Positions 64-8,812 of a DNA stretch of 64,000 bases are shown here, one piece after another; position 1 is the first letter of the stretch; every line of letters starts with the position of its first letter. A program made the translations under genes and the position numbers. The DNA lies in NCBI GenBank assembly GCA_037969055.1, contig JBBKWR010000119.1, forward strand, positions 577 through 64,576. The letters run 5' to 3'. The notes under the pieces were generated by a model. That model did not search any database. It was not told the DNA's origin and saw nothing but the letters and a program-made list of their open reading frames with translations. The DNA comes from Flavobacteriaceae bacterium (lineage in GTDB: Bacteria > Bacteroidota > Bacteroidia > Flavobacteriales > Flavobacteriaceae).

Positions 64-1788
64 GTAACCGTTGCGCAAGCCATTCAGGCCAAAAAAATGG
101 ATCCATATGAGCCTCTTTACGAGCCTTTTTTCTTGTCAGCTCAGAAGGGGATAGCTAATTTTCGATGCTTTACAGAAGGGCCAAATAGGAATTGAACGGT
201 ACTTTTCACCAATGCTGCCAAAGCAAGCTGTCCTACCCCGCTTTTTATTCGTTTTTGAGTGAATTTCAGGTACTTCTTCAAATTATAGGCAATAGCGGAG
301 AGGTGCATCACCTTATTGGCCTGTTCAATGCCAATAGTATTTATCTTTCTGAGACCCATGAACTGGGTCAACGTTCCGAAAACAGGTTCCACCGTGCTTT
401 GCCGCTTACCTTTCATGTACCTGCCCTGTGGACTGTTGACCCTTGCAATGTTCCGTTCATACTCCGCCCTATAATAGGTAACACTGAACTTCTTCTCCTG
501 GGCGCTCTTGCCCAAACATTGTTCTTGTACCGGGCAACCCACACAAACATGCTTTCTTGCCCGATACTCCTTCTTCCTGGTCTTGGTGCGACTGTCCAAA
601 AACTCCTTGGTAAACGGTATCACCTTGCCTTGGGGGCATAGGTAATGGTCTTCCCCTTCATTGTAGATGAAACCGTCCGGACCACCCTTGTACGTGCCAT
701 GGGGCGGTATAAAGCTCTTTAGACCTTGTTGTTCTAGATAGGCATAGTTCTCTCCGCTACTATAACCCGTATCGGCTACACAGTTTTCAAACATCAAACC
801 TTGTTGCCATAAACGACCTCTTAAGCGTTTTACGATGTCCTGTAATTGTTGGTTGTCCTTGCCGTCGGCATGGTAGGCCCTGATATCCGTTATAACATGA
901 TGGGCGGTGTCAACACTCAACTGTGAGAGATAGTTCAGCTTCCGCGCCTTGCCCGGCTTTACGCTGATACGCGCATCCGGGTCCGTGGGGCTGTAGTGTG
1001 TTTTGTTGCTCGTGTACTTGCTGCCCTTGCTGCCCGCTCCCGGCCGTTGGTCCTGGTCCTTGGCCCATTTCCTGTTCCTGCTTTTTATCGCATCCAGCTC
1101 TTTCTTGTTCGCGGTGACCCCCCGTTGCCCTTCGGGGGCCTTATCCTCCTTGGATCTTCTTATCGGCGTTTTTTTTATCCATTGCACTGATATGCCGAAT
1201 ACTGTGCAGATGGGCCTCCAGGTCTTCCCTGGGGACCTTGAGCTCCAGACTGTCCATACTCGCATTCGCCTTGACAGGGGCCGAATCGATGGCCTGGGTA
1301 TGCCCACTGACCATGCCCTTGTCAACACACATTGAAAGTACTTGGGTAAAAACCTCCTCGAATATGGTCTCCGGGAATAGCTGGCGCGTCCGGCTTATCG
1401 TACTGTGCCAAGGTAGTTCCTCGTCGATATCGTAACCTATGAAGTAAAGGATATCCAGACGCATCGAACAGTGGTCGATCAGCTTGCGGTCGCTGATAAT
1501 GTTCTCCAGATAGCCCACCAGGCACAGTTTGAAGAACACCACCGGGTCGATGCTCTTCTGGCCGCTCTCCCCATAATAATCCCTGGTAAGGGGATAGAGA
1601 AAACCCAGGTCGACGGCACCTTTCAATCGCCTGTAGAAATTAGTATCGGGTACGCGGTCACTTAATTGAAAACTATTGAACAGCTTCTCTTGATAATCCT
1701 TTTTTCCCTGCATACCTAAAGTTACGATCGATCCTTGGATCGGCAATGATCAACAAAGACTTTTTTCGCTAACTTCTGCAACAGGCAC
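64..1788 (-). mobile_element. IS1182-family insertion sequence
   Basis: Transposase plus imperfect terminal IRs GTAACCGTTGCGCAAGC (64-80) and GTGCCTGTTGCAGAAGT (1788-1772); flanked by AATG (60-63) and ATTG (1789-1792), an imperfect 4-bp duplication. Confidence 0.85.
141..1713 (-). pseudogene. IS1182-family DDE transposase, frameshifted in an A8 run (1169-1176)
   Basis: N-terminal frame has SIDP, SDRKLI, PWHSTISRTR and IDSAPVKANAS; C-terminal frame has DPDAR, ADTGYSSGEN and RQSTVEPVFG; removing one A joins them (MDKKTPIRRSK). Confidence 0.85.
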
Positions 1789-1811
1789 ATTGTATAACCG
1801 CAATTACTGCG

Positions 1812-1827
1812 TCCCGAAGCTTCGGGA
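1812..1827. repeat. Perfect 16-bp palindrome TCCCGAAGCTTCGGGA (REP-like) inside repeat A
   Basis: Read directly; related CCCGAAGTACGGG at 43730-43742. Confidence 0.6.
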
Positions 1828-1951
1828 GATTACGTCCGAATCCACTCGGAAATGCTAAAGTCAGTGCTAAACCGAAAATTAACGCATACAAACCCGTAAC
1901 TGACGGTTATACGTATTCCAAGGTCAAATCCTAATATAAATTCAATCATTT

Positions 1952-2944
1952 TTAAGCTGCAAACTGCTGTATTTCAACGTATGGCGTTCCTCTTTTAATT
2001 ACCGAAAAAGCTCTTGCCAAAATCTTATTTCTTACGTTATTTAAAGCCACCATTTTTGGCTTGCCTTCTTCTAATTTTCTTTGGTAATATAATTTGAGTT
2101 CGCTATCACATTGAATGGCACTTACACTTGCTAATGTCAATAAGGTTTTCATCTTTCTATCGCCTATATGATGAACTCTATTCCTTCGTTTTATGCTTGT
2201 ACCGGATTGATACCCAAAAGGTGCTACACCGCAGTAACTCGAAAACTGACGCCAACTCTCAAACTTCTTAAAGTTGTCGGTATGGTAAATCAATTGACAA
2301 GACAATATCAGCCCTACTCCTTTCATGCTGTTAAGTAAATCGTAATTACGTTGACTCGTCTTATGTTCCTTGACTAGCGCTATCATACGTTGCTCGATAG
2401 CATGTATTTGCTTGGTCAGATAGTGAATTGTTTTTTCAATCGTCTTACAACATAAATCTGTTGATGGACTGTTCAATAAGTTCCGTGCTTCTTTAAGTGT
2501 ACTGGTCTTACCTGTTCTATCACGTACCAGCTGTTCTCTGAAAGCTAATAACCTTCCTAGTTCTTGAAGATAGGTTTCTTTAGGACTGCTCAACTTAAGT
2601 TCTTCTTTATGAATCCATGCATATCGTGCTATCATAGCAGCATCTAGGCGGTCCGTTTTACCTCTTACGATTCCGCTTGAACGTTTTATAGCTAATGGAT
2701 TTTCTTCTATATAATCGATAGCATTCTCACTCATAAATACAGCCAAATTAGTAGAGTAATGACCTGTATCTTCAAAACAGAAAAAGTAACCGACCTTTTT
2801 TAAGTGTTGCTCTGTCCATTTTACCAATGCTACATATCCTTTGTAAGTATTGCTAAATAAGCGATGTAGGCCTCTTTTATATAAATGTGCATCTATGGTC
2901 AATTTTGATACATCAATCCCTACTACGTCTTCATATTTTTCCAT
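1952..2944 (-). CDS. IS110-family transposase/recombinase
   Basis: VGIDVSK, FEDTGHY, KTDRLDA (DEDD RuvC-like domain); GVG and YCGVAPFGYQSGTS (catalytic Ser); NNVRNK. Confidence 0.95.
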   Translation of the reverse strand: MEKYEDVVGIDVSKLTIDAHLYKRGLHRLFSNTYKGYVALVKWTEQHLKKVGYFFCFEDTGHYSTNLAVFMSENAIDYIEENPLAIKRSSGIVRGKTDRLDAAMIARYAWIHKEELKLSSPKETYLQELGRLLAFREQLVRDRTGKTSTLKEARNLLNSPSTDLCCKTIEKTIHYLTKQIHAIEQRMIALVKEHKTSQRNYDLLNSMKGVGLILSCQLIYHTDNFKKFESWRQFSSYCGVAPFGYQSGTSIKRRNRVHHIGDRKMKTLLTLASVSAIQCDSELKLYYQRKLEEGKPKMVALNNVRNKILARAFSVIKRGTPYVEIQQFAA

Positions 2945-2997
2945 ATTTTTAAAAGTTGTGACTAATTACATAGTCATGATTTATAAAATGTTGCAAT

Positions 2998-3132
2998 GAC
3001 TATTACCTTTAATAGGAGTTAAATCCTGGTATTCCAAATGGTCCTAAAGCAACCTAAGAAAGACAAGAGGACTGATACGTATAACGGAGCTGTAACTCCA
3101 AAGACCGTTTTAGTTCTCCTCTTGTTTCTTAG
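2998..3132 (-). ncRNA. IS110 bridge RNA (target-binding loop 3054-3132, donor-binding loop 2998-3043)
   Basis: Two stem/internal-loop/stem structures whose loop strands match the target flanks and the predicted circle junction; transcript ends are approximate. Confidence 0.85.
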
Positions 3133-3244
3133 TAAAGTTAACTGACTAGAAAATATACGGTTGTAAAGTAAAGGAGACCGTTGGGTCAAATTGCTTTTCT
3201 GTCCTTCAACAGCCAGCTTCGGGCTGTCGGCGCAGGCCGCACAC

Positions 3245-3367
3245 ATGACACAACAATCGCTAAAAGCAATTTGGCAAGGTTCACTTGTCTTTTAAAAATA
3301 CGCGAATAAATTCACTATTTTTAAAATCCAGAACCTCACTACGTTTAGCGGGGCGTTAGCAAACATT
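3245..3367 (+). repeat. attC-like cassette repeat B
   Basis: ATGACACAAC-AAT-CGCTAAA...TTTAGCG-GGGC-GTTAGCAAACAT, with nested stems AGGTTC/GAACCT and TTTTAAAAATA/TATTTTTAAAA. Confidence 0.8.
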
Positions 3368-3380
3368 AAAAAATAATATT

Positions 3381-4580
3381 ATGAAAAATCTGATCTTATT
3401 TTCTTCTATTATTCTCTTGATTTTTGGATGTCAACAAAATCAAACAAAATCAAGTGATTCAACTTTAAAAACTTATTTTGAATCAAGTTCAATTCCATCA
3501 GCGATTATGGGCAGCATTGATGCAGATGGAAAGACCACCTGGCATCGTTTTGGACCTTCTATTTGGGAAGATTCAACGACAGTGGTTACAGAAGATAATA
3601 TTTTTAGGATTTTTTCTATGACAAAAGCTATTACCTCTGTTGCAGCATTGCAGCTTGTTGAAAAAGGGTTAATAGGATTGGACGATCCATTGAATGAGCT
3701 AATGCCAGAAATGATAGTCATTCCTTTATTAGATGAAGATGGAAACCTAATTCATAGTGATGAAATAATTACTTTGAGACAATTACTAACTCATACATCT
3801 GGGTTTGGCAAAAAGTTCTTTCACTCTAAATTATATAATTTCAATGATGAAAATTGGTCTTACGAAGATCTACCAAGACTTTTTCAGCCAGGTACATCAT
3901 TCGCTTATGGGGACGGTTTAGTTTGGGCTGGCAAAGTTGTCGAAAAAATAAGCAACCAAGATCTGGAAACTTACTTCAGAGAGCATATTACGGGCCCTTT
4001 AAAAATGGATAATACTTGGTATAATGTGCCTAAAAACTTAAGCGAAAATATAGTAACTCTGGGGGGACGTGATTCTTTAGGAATTATTAATACCTGGGCC
4101 CGTATTCCCGAAAAACCTCAAACTGATTATAGTGGAGCTAGTAATCTATTTGCTTCACCAAGTGATTATTTAAAATTTTTGCATTGTATGATGAACTTCG
4201 GAAAGTATGAAGGAGGTCAACTGTTAAAGAAAGAAACAGTACTTCTTATGCTAAAGGATAATTTGCCAATAGGAATTAAAATCCCGAAAATTGAAGAATT
4301 CGATAACGGTGGAATAATTGGGTATACAGGGGATCATTATGTAGGACTAACAAATGACAGATGGGGATTAGCTTGGGCAATAGAAAAGGATGAAAATGAG
4401 ATTCGACCAGTTAATTCTGTTTATTGGGCAGGAGCAGCAAATTCTTATTTTACGTTAGATGTAGAGAATAAAATTGCAATTGTATATTTCTCTAATTACT
4501 TCCCATTTAACGACAAGGAGGCCTATGACTTCTATAAGCTATATGAAAAAGAAGTCTATACAGAAATTATGAATAAATAA
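3381..4580 (+). CDS. Serine hydrolase, beta-lactamase/class C-like family lipoprotein (cassette)
   Basis: Lipobox LIFGC, SxxK motif (FRIFSMTK), LLTHTSG, FAYG, WAGAANSYF. Confidence 0.85.
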   Translation: MKNLILFSSIILLIFGCQQNQTKSSDSTLKTYFESSSIPSAIMGSIDADGKTTWHRFGPSIWEDSTTVVTEDNIFRIFSMTKAITSVAALQLVEKGLIGLDDPLNELMPEMIVIPLLDEDGNLIHSDEIITLRQLLTHTSGFGKKFFHSKLYNFNDENWSYEDLPRLFQPGTSFAYGDGLVWAGKVVEKISNQDLETYFREHITGPLKMDNTWYNVPKNLSENIVTLGGRDSLGIINTWARIPEKPQTDYSGASNLFASPSDYLKFLHCMMNFGKYEGGQLLKKETVLLMLKDNLPIGIKIPKIEEFDNGGIIGYTGDHYVGLTNDRWGLAWAIEKDENEIRPVNSVYWAGAANSYFTLDVENKIAIVYFSNYFPFNDKEAYDFYKLYEKEVYTEIMNK

Positions 4581-4722
4581 CGATGTGCTAACAATGTATA
4601 TAAAAAATAGGCGAAACCGCAATAAAATTAAGGGTTTTGACTCATATAAACTTTCTGCCTAACCGAAAGTTTGGTGCTACGAAATCGCCTACTTTTCATA
4701 TACTAACCGTTAGTGGCAATGC
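4581..4722 (+). repeat. attC-like cassette repeat C
   Basis: GATGTGCTAAC-AAT-GTATATAAAAAATAGGCGA...TCGCCTACTTTTCATATAC-TAACC-GTTAGTGGCAAT; arms 17/19 complementary; inner stem AAACTTTC/GAAAGTTT. Confidence 0.9.
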
Positions 4723-4759: not shown

Positions 4760-6157
4760 ATGAGTCAACCAGAAAACACACCATCTGACAATAATAATAG
4801 AACGCTATCTGCAATAGAACTAAGAGATATACTGCGAAATCCACCCACAGAGTTTATAAAGGAATCACATGGAATAAAAAGCATTCTAATAAGTCGTTAT
4901 ACTATTGAAGACGAACGCCTTATATTAGATAAGAGCATCACAGTAAATTTGCCATTGATTTTTGAGGGTTGCACATTTAAATCTAAAAAGCAGTTTTTTA
5001 TAAGTGGCATAACATGTAATGAATCTTTGATTTTTAATTTCTGTACAATATCCGATTCTATCTACTTCGACAGTGGAACATTCAAAAAAGAGGTCGTGCT
5101 AAAGTATGTGCACGTAAAGTACATTCATTTATCTGACTGCACATTTGATGAAGTTAGTATCTCTGGTTACCACATTGACGAAATCTGGATGTCGGGGAGC
5201 AAATTTGAAAGTTTGAATATAGGTGAACATCTAGTTGGCGACAACATAAGCAAACTCACAATCTTTGCAGAGGAAGATGAAACAGGTGATATTACTGTTA
5301 GGGAACAGGGTTTTGATGAGATACATTTGAGTGGAACAAATAAAGGTAGAACCTTCAATTTTGAGCAAGTGAAATGCGATACTGTTTCAATAATAAATTT
5401 TAAAAATGAAGGCTCATTAAATTTTTTCGGCATCGAACCGAAAGATGTTAACAATGACAAAAGATATTTCCAGATTATCAATAGCAATTTAGACAAAGTT
5501 CAATTTTATAGAGCTCATTTCTCCCAATATAAAGAGCTCATAATTATGGACAGCTTTATTACCGACGCACTGTTTATTGGTTGTAGGTGGAGTAACAATA
5601 TAAGAGCTCTATATGGGCCAGGATATCGCACGTTTAAAGATTCCCTAAAGACTGGGCGCAAGACAACAGATACGGAGATTGTTGCTATTAAGGAAGCTTA
5701 TAGGCAACTCAAAATTTCTATGTCGAAGCATAGTGATAAGATACAGGAACATAAATTCTATTCACAAGAGTTGAATTTTCACAACAAAACATTATCATGG
5801 GAACAACCATGGACAAACCAATTTTGGGATAAAGTTATTTTATTTTTCAGCAAAACCTTTAGTGACTATGGTCAAAGCTTTATAAAACCTTTATGCTGGT
5901 TATTAGTGGGGCATTATATTCTCTTTATACTTGCGTTGCAACTTAACGGATTTGATCCCTTACACATTTCACTTTCAGAACCTACAGCGACAGGTTTTAA
6001 AGAAGCATTTGAAAAGTTTTTTATTTATATAAATCCATTAAGAAGACTGGAAACATCTCTTTCTGGTTATTTAATTCTCTTAGACTTGTTAATGAGAATC
6101 TGGTCATCATATATGATATACAATCTCATTAGGGCATCAAGACGATTCATTTCATAA
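4760..6157 (+). CDS. Pentapeptide-like/beta-solenoid protein with C-terminal membrane domain (cassette)
   Basis: Periodic xxxxF/I repeats, then AYRQLK...SDYGQSFIKPLCWLL and hydrophobic helices. Confidence 0.65.
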   Translation: MSQPENTPSDNNNRTLSAIELRDILRNPPTEFIKESHGIKSILISRYTIEDERLILDKSITVNLPLIFEGCTFKSKKQFFISGITCNESLIFNFCTISDSIYFDSGTFKKEVVLKYVHVKYIHLSDCTFDEVSISGYHIDEIWMSGSKFESLNIGEHLVGDNISKLTIFAEEDETGDITVREQGFDEIHLSGTNKGRTFNFEQVKCDTVSIINFKNEGSLNFFGIEPKDVNNDKRYFQIINSNLDKVQFYRAHFSQYKELIIMDSFITDALFIGCRWSNNIRALYGPGYRTFKDSLKTGRKTTDTEIVAIKEAYRQLKISMSKHSDKIQEHKFYSQELNFHNKTLSWEQPWTNQFWDKVILFFSKTFSDYGQSFIKPLCWLLVGHYILFILALQLNGFDPLHISLSEPTATGFKEAFEKFFIYINPLRRLETSLSGYLILLDLLMRIWSSYMIYNLIRASRRFIS

Positions 6158-6166
6158 CACAAAGTA

Positions 6167-6310
6167 GCACATGCCACTCACAATGGGTATAAAACATAGG
6201 GCGGACTGTGGTTTTCGCAAATTTTGGATTCTTAGTAAACTTAGTCTCGGTGGACAAGTAAACAAACCCGAAATGCCCTACGTTTCATACCCGAGACGTT
6301 ATGTACAAGC
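6167..6310 (+). repeat. attC-like cassette repeat D
   Basis: ATGCCACTCAC-AAT-GGGTATAAAACATAGGGC...GCCCTACGTTTCATACCC-GAGAC-GTTATGTACAA; arms 16/18 complementary. Confidence 0.88.
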
Positions 6311-7093: not shown

Positions 7094-8812
7094 TTATTTA
7101 TTCTTAAGAAATCCAAATGGTTTTTTTATCAAGTTATAATCAAACGTTTCCACATCCGAATACTTACTAAACTCTGTTTTCATCCTATGATATATCTTTA
7201 ATGGTTGTTTTCCGAAGTCTTTCAAAAAGTACTCCTTTTTGGAGCCTAAATCCAATGCACCATAATATCTTGACCCTATCATAAATTCCATTGGGGGTAT
7301 GGGTATATAGAACTCTATTTTTATTTTTAGAGGTACTGCGTGGTAGTCAATTGTTATTCTTTTGATGTACTTTGCCACCATTGCTGATTTTTCCTCAAAA
7401 GGTAAGTTTTCAATTATGGTTTTTTTATTTTCCGCAAGCACCCTATTTTTTACTATTTTTTGCATGCTAGCATCAAAGTACTCCTTTATGAAAGGGTCTG
7501 ATAAATCTACCCATTGCTCGAACAGATTGAATTTAAAGTCATTTTCTAACTCTACTAGTACCCTATTGCCATTTACAAGCTTTTCTAGTTCGACAGCTAT
7601 TTCCCGAAGTGTTTCATCGGTTTTATAAGCTTGGTCATCTATCCTTTTTTTCTCAGCTCTATACGTTCCTATATAACCCCCCTCCTTAACAAATAGCTGA
7701 TGGTTTCTTTTTGTTTCTATCTTTAGCTGTTCATGCTTCTTTAAGTGGTACTCCTGTTTTTTCTCCAGTACTTTCTTTTGCCCTGTATTTCCCCCCGCCT
7801 GATAGGTTTGCTTTGCTTGCTCGTACAGTTCTTGACCAAGGAGTATTTTCTCAAAAATAAGCTTATCTATTGCCCAAGCCCTAACGGCTTTACTTCCGCA
7901 TTTTGGTATACCTCTATTTACTTCGCTCAAGCACCTGTAGTAAGAATGTCTATGCCTTTGTGAAACGGTATACCGTGTACCACATTTAGCACAAAACATA
8001 ACCTCATTTAAAATATACTTTTTTGATTTGCTCCCAGGTTTTTTGTACCTCTTCCCGATGCTTTCAATTACCTTATCGTGTGTATGCTTATCGATTATGG
8101 GGGGGACTACTTCTAATTCTAATTCATTGTGCTTTACCCTTCCTGAATAGGTTTTATTATATATCATATACCTAATGGTTGCAGGAGTCCATTCGATATC
8201 GTACCGTGTTTCAATACCCATTTCGTTGAGATGTTTAGCAATCCTTATATATCCGTATCCTTTTTGGTACAAATCAAAGATGGTTTTAACTGTCTCTAAT
8301 TCCCCAGGATGTATTTTCCATTTGCCTTTATCGTCCGTGGTGTAACCATAGGGGGTTAAGCCATGGGGAATTCCCTCCATTGCATTACGTCTTAGTACTG
8401 TTTGTATCTTCTTAGCTGTTATACGGGCAAAATGTGCGTCCATCCCCGCTTTTATCGTGTAGAATAGGTACGTGTTTTCATCGCTGAAATCATTTTCTAC
8501 ACCGTTATCGTACAGTAAAGTACCTGTTTCCCGTAAAAGGTCGGCAAATGTATGCCATGATATTTCATTTCGTGCCAGTCGGGAACTATCCCATATAAAC
8601 ACCCCTTTAATTTCCTTTTTCCTAATATCAATTAGCAATTCGGCAAATTTGGGTCGTTGTTCCTCGGACTTTTGACCGCTGATTATTCCCTCATCGTAAA
8701 ATTTATATGACATTTCTTTGTCGAGGGCGAACTCCTGACCTAGCAACCGTTGCTCTTTTAGACTCTTCTCCTTTGCCCTGTCCCTGCTCTTTCGGATGTA
8801 TATTGCTAACAT
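7094..8812 (-). CDS. Large serine recombinase (integrase)
   Basis: YIRKS catalytic motif, DSSRLARN, PYGY recombinase domain, Zn ribbon (CAKCG...YYRC...C), coiled coil. Confidence 0.93.
   Translation of the reverse strand: MLAIYIRKSRDRAKEKSLKEQRLLGQEFALDKEMSYKFYDEGIISGQKSEEQRPKFAELLIDIRKKEIKGVFIWDSSRLARNEISWHTFADLLRETGTLLYDNGVENDFSDENTYLFYTIKAGMDAHFARITAKKIQTVLRRNAMEGIPHGLTPYGYTTDDKGKWKIHPGELETVKTIFDLYQKGYGYIRIAKHLNEMGIETRYDIEWTPATIRYMIYNKTYSGRVKHNELELEVVPPIIDKHTHDKVIESIGKRYKKPGSKSKKYILNEVMFCAKCGTRYTVSQRHRHSYYRCLSEVNRGIPKCGSKAVRAWAIDKLIFEKILLGQELYEQAKQTYQAGGNTGQKKVLEKKQEYHLKKHEQLKIETKRNHQLFVKEGGYIGTYRAEKKRIDDQAYKTDETLREIAVELEKLVNGNRVLVELENDFKFNLFEQWVDLSDPFIKEYFDASMQKIVKNRVLAENKKTIIENLPFEEKSAMVAKYIKRITIDYHAVPLKIKIEFYIPIPPMEFMIGSRYYGALDLGSKKEYFLKDFGKQPLKIYHRMKTEFSKYSDVETFDYNLIKKPFGFLKNK

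Follow-up and report, generated by a model that had tools for sequence, protein, structure and literature searches.

The window, by which we mean the whole stretch of 64,000 nucleotides that was analysed, contains an intact IS110-group element of 1,261 bp (1913-3173, minus strand) with a predicted bridge RNA of the IS621 type, which likely directs insertion six bases before the GTT of a cassette repeat. Judging from the sequence comparisons set out below, we put the probability of this reading at roughly 0.9.

The element and its recombinase

Read on the minus strand, the left end of the element starts with CTTTAC at 3173 and the right end closes with TTGGAATAC at 1913, such that the left junction AACGGTCTC/CTTTAC occupies 3182-3168 and the right junction TTGGAATAC/GTATAAC 1921-1906 (here and below, a slash marks the point of insertion). 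The left target flank AACGGTCTC (3174-3182, minus strand) corresponds on the plus strand to the spacer of the cassette repeat plus its GTT (R'), and the right target flank GTATAAC (1906-1912, minus strand) is the inner arm (L') of the repeat. A contig from a public run (X9), with 29 bases on its short side and hence slightly below our bridging rule, omits exactly 1261 bases and runs from 1912 directly into 3174 within the same cassette context. The non-coding DNA amounts to 229 nt upstream of the recombinase gene and 39 nt downstream, which places the element in the IS110 group and not in IS1111, since a long non-coding end upstream of the gene separates the two in the relevant parts of PMC11208160 and PMC11187229. 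None of the 25 longest inverted repeats listed of at least 12 nt lies at the element ends.

The gene (1952-2944, minus strand) encodes an IS110 recombinase of 330 aa in which an N-terminal DEDD domain (PF01548) is joined to a C-terminal domain with the catalytic serine (PF02371), the combination that characterizes the IS110 family. It scores 176 bits against the NCBIfam IS110 model NF033542 (cut-off 140), and a PDB search gave two matches, ISCro4 and IS621 (E 1e-22 to 1e-25). The residues that correspond to the catalytic set of IS621 (PMC11208158), D11, E58, D98, D101 and S247, are all present and are invariant across 11 aligned relatives.

In the source assembly (84.6% complete, 457 contigs) there is no second copy of the element and no exact empty 16-mer target, and two guide-compatible sites stand empty. 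Near-identical copies (95-96% amino acid identity) occupy three other cassette sites (loci L051/L052, L056 and L122), and a phylum-wide protein search matched 2 of 400 other genomes at E 1e-60.

A predicted two-loop RNA in the leader

The recombinase leader (minus strand 2945-3173) is predicted to contain a bridge RNA with a core at 2990-3135 (minus strand, as are all features of this section), in which a target-binding loop is followed by a donor-binding loop; single-sequence folds, an alignment fold and covariation point to this arrangement. The preliminary description of this DNA had already named segments of both loops and the long stem of the target loop, and every one of them was recovered in place. 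The target loop (3054-3132) has a closing stem of 3117-3132 with 3054-3071, to which folds and covariation both attest. It carries the left target guide AACGGTCT (3102-3109; in a longer form AACGGTCTT, 3101-3109) and, located by script, a hairpin formed by GGAG and CTCC (3086-3099) and the right target guide GTTATACG (3078-3085). In RNA letters and with position numbers taken from IS621 (PMC11208158, PMC13626964), the left guide AACGGUCUU (3101-3109) covers positions 1-9, its final U reading C or T, and the right guide is GUUAUACG followed by UAU (3075-3085), where the UAU complements donor ATA after strand exchange (the handshake). The donor loop (2990-3053), likewise based on folds and covariation, has an outer stem of 3049-3053 with 2990-2994, which reaches eight bases past the previously given start at 2998, and contains the left donor guide TTGGAATACC (3028-3037, with the core UUGGAAUAC at 3029-3037) and the right donor guide TAAAGGTA (3004-3011; UAAAGG plus UAA at 3003-3011).

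When the leader was shuffled 20,000 times with dinucleotides preserved, no shuffle retained more than two of the four guide words and 28 retained two, in keeping with the four guide matches claimed at the outset. Folding of 2995-3135, which had been suggested as a check, gave z = -3.17 with 1 of 200 shuffles equally good (for the longer 2960-3172, z = -1.82 and 9 of 200). The donor guides pair in another structure in the single-sequence fold of 2995-3135; the donor loop as given above is seen in the 2960-3172 fold and in the alignment fold. For the latter, 48 leaders were drawn from 53 clusters at 85% identity, and they fold as a pair of stems that both contain an internal loop and a small hairpin. 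In this alignment 92% of cells are paired (slid controls 35-52%) and 21 of 24 pairs have two-sided changes, figures that are somewhat favoured by the tested structure having been derived from the same 48 sequences. The covariation of the stems in 48 relatives sustains the original reading of an IS621-type two-loop bridge RNA. Rfam returned no match at E 0.1 among 12 loci.

The donor guides match the end-to-end junction over 10 and 8 nt in the window element, and the donor-guide match to the own junction is 7-9 of 9 in 101 of 104 elements; covariation on the donor side is weak because donors vary little. One may ask whether only the target loop is processed, to a short seekRNA, with the donor loop dispensable or on a separate molecule, as for ISEc21, where an RNA of 58-74 nt is enough (PMC11187229). 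This would suit the 46 of 104 elements in which only 7-8 of 9 bases of the left donor guide match, but we consider it rather improbable, since the donor-loop stems covary as well as the target-loop stems, the AAAGG of the right donor guide is invariant in 48 of 48 aligned RNAs, and the last three bases of this guide drift toward the target sequence in several lineages. We thus keep to a bridge RNA with both loops. As a separate observation, the leaders of loci L095 and L096 have two tandem target-loop-like hairpins, with guides that are similar but not identical, upstream of one recombinase gene.

Guides follow targets in relatives

By similarity to the window recombinase, 160 loci were gathered (one further locus with the wrong copy was excluded), and scaffold motifs alone parsed 116 of them. 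Among the 44 unparsed loci, five have upstream DNA that is truncated or comes from another element, and the others are contig-end cuts or pattern misses. Guide/target covariation, which the preliminary description had named as a check, was evaluated on one element per 70% protein cluster (n = 26) with 10,000 shuffles; three rows that allowed two left ends were left out, and one guide comes from a previous parse. The check came out clearly: guide and own flank agree at 6.85 of 8 positions on the left (shuffled 2.51) and at 4.27 of 5 on the right (shuffled 1.68), and in both cases 0 of 10,000 shuffles were as high, counts that overstate the effect because the relatives are kin and were collected by similarity to one protein. 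Within the window's subclade (n = 24), guide positions 5-8 match at 3.88 of 4 compared with 2.41 after shuffling (again 0 of 10,000). The guide classes GTCT, TGTT, TTTA and AGTT at these positions face an identical flank in 41 of 45 elements of this subclade, and one that is identical or one C/T off in at least 42 of 45. Guides of relatives include AACGTGTTT and AACGTTTAT.

That the guide matches are relics of an internal duplication of element ends and flank, devoid of guide function, would be compatible with the single copy in the source assembly. We regard this as very improbable, given that the matches are to opposite strands in the order known from IS621 and that the covarying stems and guides span 35-100% protein identity. 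We therefore continue to treat the matching segments as guides.

Specialisation on cassette repeats, as initially proposed, is borne out in the relatives. Cassette-site guides form one branch (SH-aLRT 99.7 in a quick tree search without bootstrap), and left flanks have AACG in register in 45 of 48 (three more are off by one base) and 30 of 30 members of the two cassette subclades, compared with 0 of 21 in deeper relatives, which insert at other repeats. Sister lineages with the same scaffold have unrelated targets that match their own guides. The near-identical copies sit at AACGGTCTY/GTRTA and tolerate mismatches at right-guide positions 11-16, so that only about five bases of the right guide would be used, with U:G wobble. 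The target was at first described as one exact 16-mer; the rebuilt empty cassette site is real, but the 16-mer has to be relaxed to AACGGTCTY/GTRTA.

The source genome itself has three paralogous IS110 elements (G000, contigs C265, C172 and C97) with the same scaffold and other guides and flanks, two of them aimed at the palindromic repeat CCTGCCGGCAGG and one at AGCTTCAGC/TGAAT. Another IS110 lineage, only distantly related (~32% identity; G000:C339 upstream of 3097, and L057 at 700-960), lies at the opposite end of cassette repeats. The L057 leader contains ATGAACCGT, which matches its own left flank, and this is possibly a second convergence on cassette sites.

The cassette repeat and its arrays

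The rebuilt empty 16-mer is found in 132 of 400 family genomes, with up to 17 copies each (reversed control 0), and all 20 empty-site loci that were read represent one attC-like repeat of ~140 nt with the layout YAAC-AAT-GTATAACC...GGTTATAC-GAGACC-GTT. In three folded examples the arms pair. The point of insertion is where the inner arm meets the spacer, six bases short of GTT, and the element runs opposite to the cassettes. The body of the interrupted repeat (1789-1912, plus strand) is near-identical to 20 intact sites, and a contig matches 1787-1913 without difference. Three further attC-like sites follow on the plus strand: one closes a short cassette with no plus-strand ORF of at least 70 aa (3245-3363), one comes after a beta-lactamase-fold cassette at 3381-4580 (4583-4717) and one after a 465-aa cassette at 4760-6157 (6172-6306). 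By a strict rule, the far arm of the hairpin was detected in 23 of 38 and 8 of 17 right flanks (shuffled 13% and 9%) and in 1 of 11 others; the rule misses the window site because an IS1182-family element interrupts its other end.

This IS1182-family element (64-1788, minus strand, ends approximate), with its gene in two frames, interrupts the short spacer at the opposite end of this cassette repeat and is flanked by AATG and ATTG, such that one site has been struck at both ends by unrelated elements. After the interrupted site, 3180-3250 is a very short cassette with an internal inverted repeat, and related sequence occurs in public runs. The product of 3381-4580 falls far below every curated beta-lactamase cut-off and matches a methyl acetate hydrolase model best, so that it is more likely a serine hydrolase. 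Directly past the end of the array, a gene for a large serine recombinase (7094-8812) lies on the opposite strand.

In 138 cassettes from four arrays, delimited with our own detector, the hexamer that follows GTT agrees with the inverse core at the end of the same cassette at 4.6 of 6 positions (shuffled 1.95, maximum 2.36), which is a signature of integron-type cassettes. No protein in five genomes exceeded the TIGR02249 cut-off for an integron integrase. The recombinase at the array head scores 188 bits where 265 are required and has ~24 residues where the profile has ~66; being below the cut-off and without most of the IntI insertion, it led us to reject a true IntI integron. Arrays of relatives begin directly downstream of a co-oriented tyrosine recombinase of ~400 aa: among the matches fetched (25 of 58), a site lay downstream on the same strand at 12 of 17 loci and upstream at 1 of 24. 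The head of the window's own array lies off the contig. By their sequence features, these arrays are integron-like (rAID-1-like) and not IntI integrons. According to the relevant part of its description, IntegronFinder 2.0 detects hardly any integrons in Bacteroidetes (10.1101/2022.02.28.482270).

At G206:C8 near ~235,000 (L116, 10243-11451) and at L205-L229, the cassette arrays start with a co-oriented Xer-like recombinase that lacks the IntI insertion, and homologues of the array recombinase occur in 57 of 150 family genomes searched. The source genome has two such homologues (C245, 7647-9794, and C422), both interrupted by a stop codon within the region that the profile matches. On C245 one cassette and a site come next before the contig ends, and this homologue is a possible array head.

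The foldable nature of the repeat raises a further possibility, namely that the guides read sequence while selection of a site further depends on the folded hairpin or on a protein of the host or the array, which would preclude free reprogramming. All readable targets of the clade lie at one position of the foldable repeat, the near-identical copies put up with the right-guide mismatches described above, the two guide-compatible sites of the source assembly are empty, and a logic of sequence plus structure has been described for another IS110 element in part of 10.64898/2026.03.19.712850. We nevertheless think this unlikely, as sister lineages with the same scaffold use unrelated targets matching their own guides, and within the clade a changed guide base goes with the same change in the flank (positions 5-8). 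Our preferred reading remains that the guides of the RNA direct the choice of site.

Core, handshake and proposed mechanism

The donor has AC at positions 8-9, where the target has TC or TT, and because these are unlike, a shared core could comprise one base at most; an IS621-type dinucleotide core common to donor and target is absent from the window's subclade. Among the left junctions of this subclade, position 8 is T in 42 of 45 and position 9 is T in 30 of 45, and donor ATAC occurs at 0 of 48. Right junctions have donor bases in 56 of 56 cases, partly by construction of the parser. In the sister subclade, donor and target share GC in 29 of 30. A C core had been claimed for the element, and C is indeed shared in this copy, but this is partly coincidence in view of the T in 30 of the 45 left junctions. 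The left junction retains the bases of the target and the right junction those of the donor, so that the C need not be shared. The donor AT at positions 6-7 faces AU of the target loop exactly as in IS621, and by hand count, positions 6-8 form two pairs before strand exchange and four after. The handshake likely spans three bases, and the top strand likely sets the outcome. In part of the sister subclade (L069, L072, L077, L171 and L173, also L061 and L082) the right end stops at TTGG(A) and is then followed by a full target half-site unlike the left flank, which is not a simple duplication.

By analogy with IS621, the element would be released, either by excision or by copying, as a circle in which TTGGAATAC abuts CTTTAC, and a recombinase tetramer would bind the bridge RNA. 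The target loop would then read AACGGTCTY/GTRTA and the donor loop the circle junction, the top strands would be cut after position 9 and swapped, and pairing of the target-loop UAU with the incoming donor ATA could drive the reaction forward. The inserted element would separate GTT from the rest of the hairpin, and the site is likely frozen, with the genes spared.

A full junction of right end and left end was absent from the fetched loci, and a search for the junction motif in five genomes gave one match, by chance, outside any element. At 5 of 80 right junctions, CTTT, the start of the left end, follows. For IS621, single-strand excision and donor-only half-match events are described in part of 10.64898/2026.08.31.748434; the five CTTT junctions would fit such half-match events and may thereby lend indirect support to the predicted circle junction.

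Contig sets from four RNA libraries contain pieces of the element or its relatives. In one, a 244-nt contig of another element (18 differences) spans 2986-3183 at a depth of 152, compared with 2-3 for gene contigs; it includes target flank, and such contigs show neither level nor strand, for which reasons we give it no weight as a sign of expression. A sigma-70 scan upstream of the RNA in the integrated form found no site, and promoters of Bacteroidota differ from the sigma-70 pattern. By eye, the candidate TTGACC-17-TACAAC spans the joined element ends.

Significance and relation to known systems

Taken further, the data invite a broader and more tentative proposal, which we consider possible but somewhat less probable than its negation: a clade of bridge recombinases in Bacteroidota may have converged, independently of the IS1111-attC group, on non-IntI cassette sites, where it would recombine without an obligatory shared core and use a three-base handshake instead, the top strand always setting the junction and guide drift tracking subfamilies of cassette sites. 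If the core-free part is true, the clade would yield a programmable recombinase that needs no core, and with it a ready-made tool to probe the arrays. In any case it provides dozens of naturally reprogrammed bridge RNAs with readable targets, of which we found none described for the phylum in the literature searched. The clade further suggests that not all such systems obey the shared-core rule of IS621, a point that matters for the freedom with which bridge recombinases can be directed. In addition, the element shows to the base where the functional end of an integron-like repeat lies, a repeat that Flavobacteriaceae commonly have and integron software misses, and it could be used for placing reporters in arrays or for testing the effect of a blocked site on the shuffling of cassettes.

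Earlier work has described bridge RNAs encoded upstream of IS110 genes, as well as attC targeting by IS1111 elements under RNA guidance (PMC11208160, PMC11187229). In the literature searched, including part of the supplements of these two papers, there was no account of the clade or of IS110 elements targeting cassette repeats of Bacteroidota; a recent survey of 32,190 predicted bridge RNAs (10.64898/2026.10.21.760802), of which we consulted part, possibly includes it.

From what is described of IS621 and ISCro4 (IS622) in parts of PMC11208160, PMC11208158 and PMC13626964, the window element shares with them a recombinase with DEDD domain and Tnp serine, an RNA in the long left end, the order of target loop before donor loop, left guides of 9 nt and the AU/AT handshake at 6-7. 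It differs in its distant protein and Bacteroidota host, in having donor AC against target TC or TT in place of a CT core, in a right guide of 5-7 nt, and in a target that is a cassette repeat instead of a REP element. ISEc21, also of the IS110 group, has an upstream non-coding region, abutted ends in the circle and no target duplication, as is seen or, for the circle, predicted for the element studied here, but it targets a coding sequence of IS3 elements and is described as using a single-loop seekRNA (PMC11187229, in part). The IS1111-attC group (ISKpn4, ISPst6, ISPa25) likewise shows RNA-guided insertion at one end of cassette sites, but in the portion of PMC11187229 that treats it, the RNA lies downstream of the gene, there are sub-terminal inverted repeats of 7-17 bp, and the targets are IntI attC sites of Proteobacteria. 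With its guides upstream of the gene, the window element was rejected as a member of that group, and since it is of the IS110 group and not of the IS1111 type, its targeting of cassette sites is likely convergent.

As for the arrays, they resemble integrons in that the sites fold and the cassette ends match. The closest described system, by layout, is rAID-1 of Bacteroidales (10.1101/471110, in part), where a XerD-like tyrosine recombinase is followed by co-directional genes with repeated intergenic sequences. rAID-1 is defined there by >44% identity to the B. fragilis recombinase and by immunity-gene cargo; the arrays here are found in Flavobacteriaceae and carry mixed cargo. Overall, the likely mechanism of this element is a known one; its lineage, its target and its reduced core appear new in view of the literature searched.
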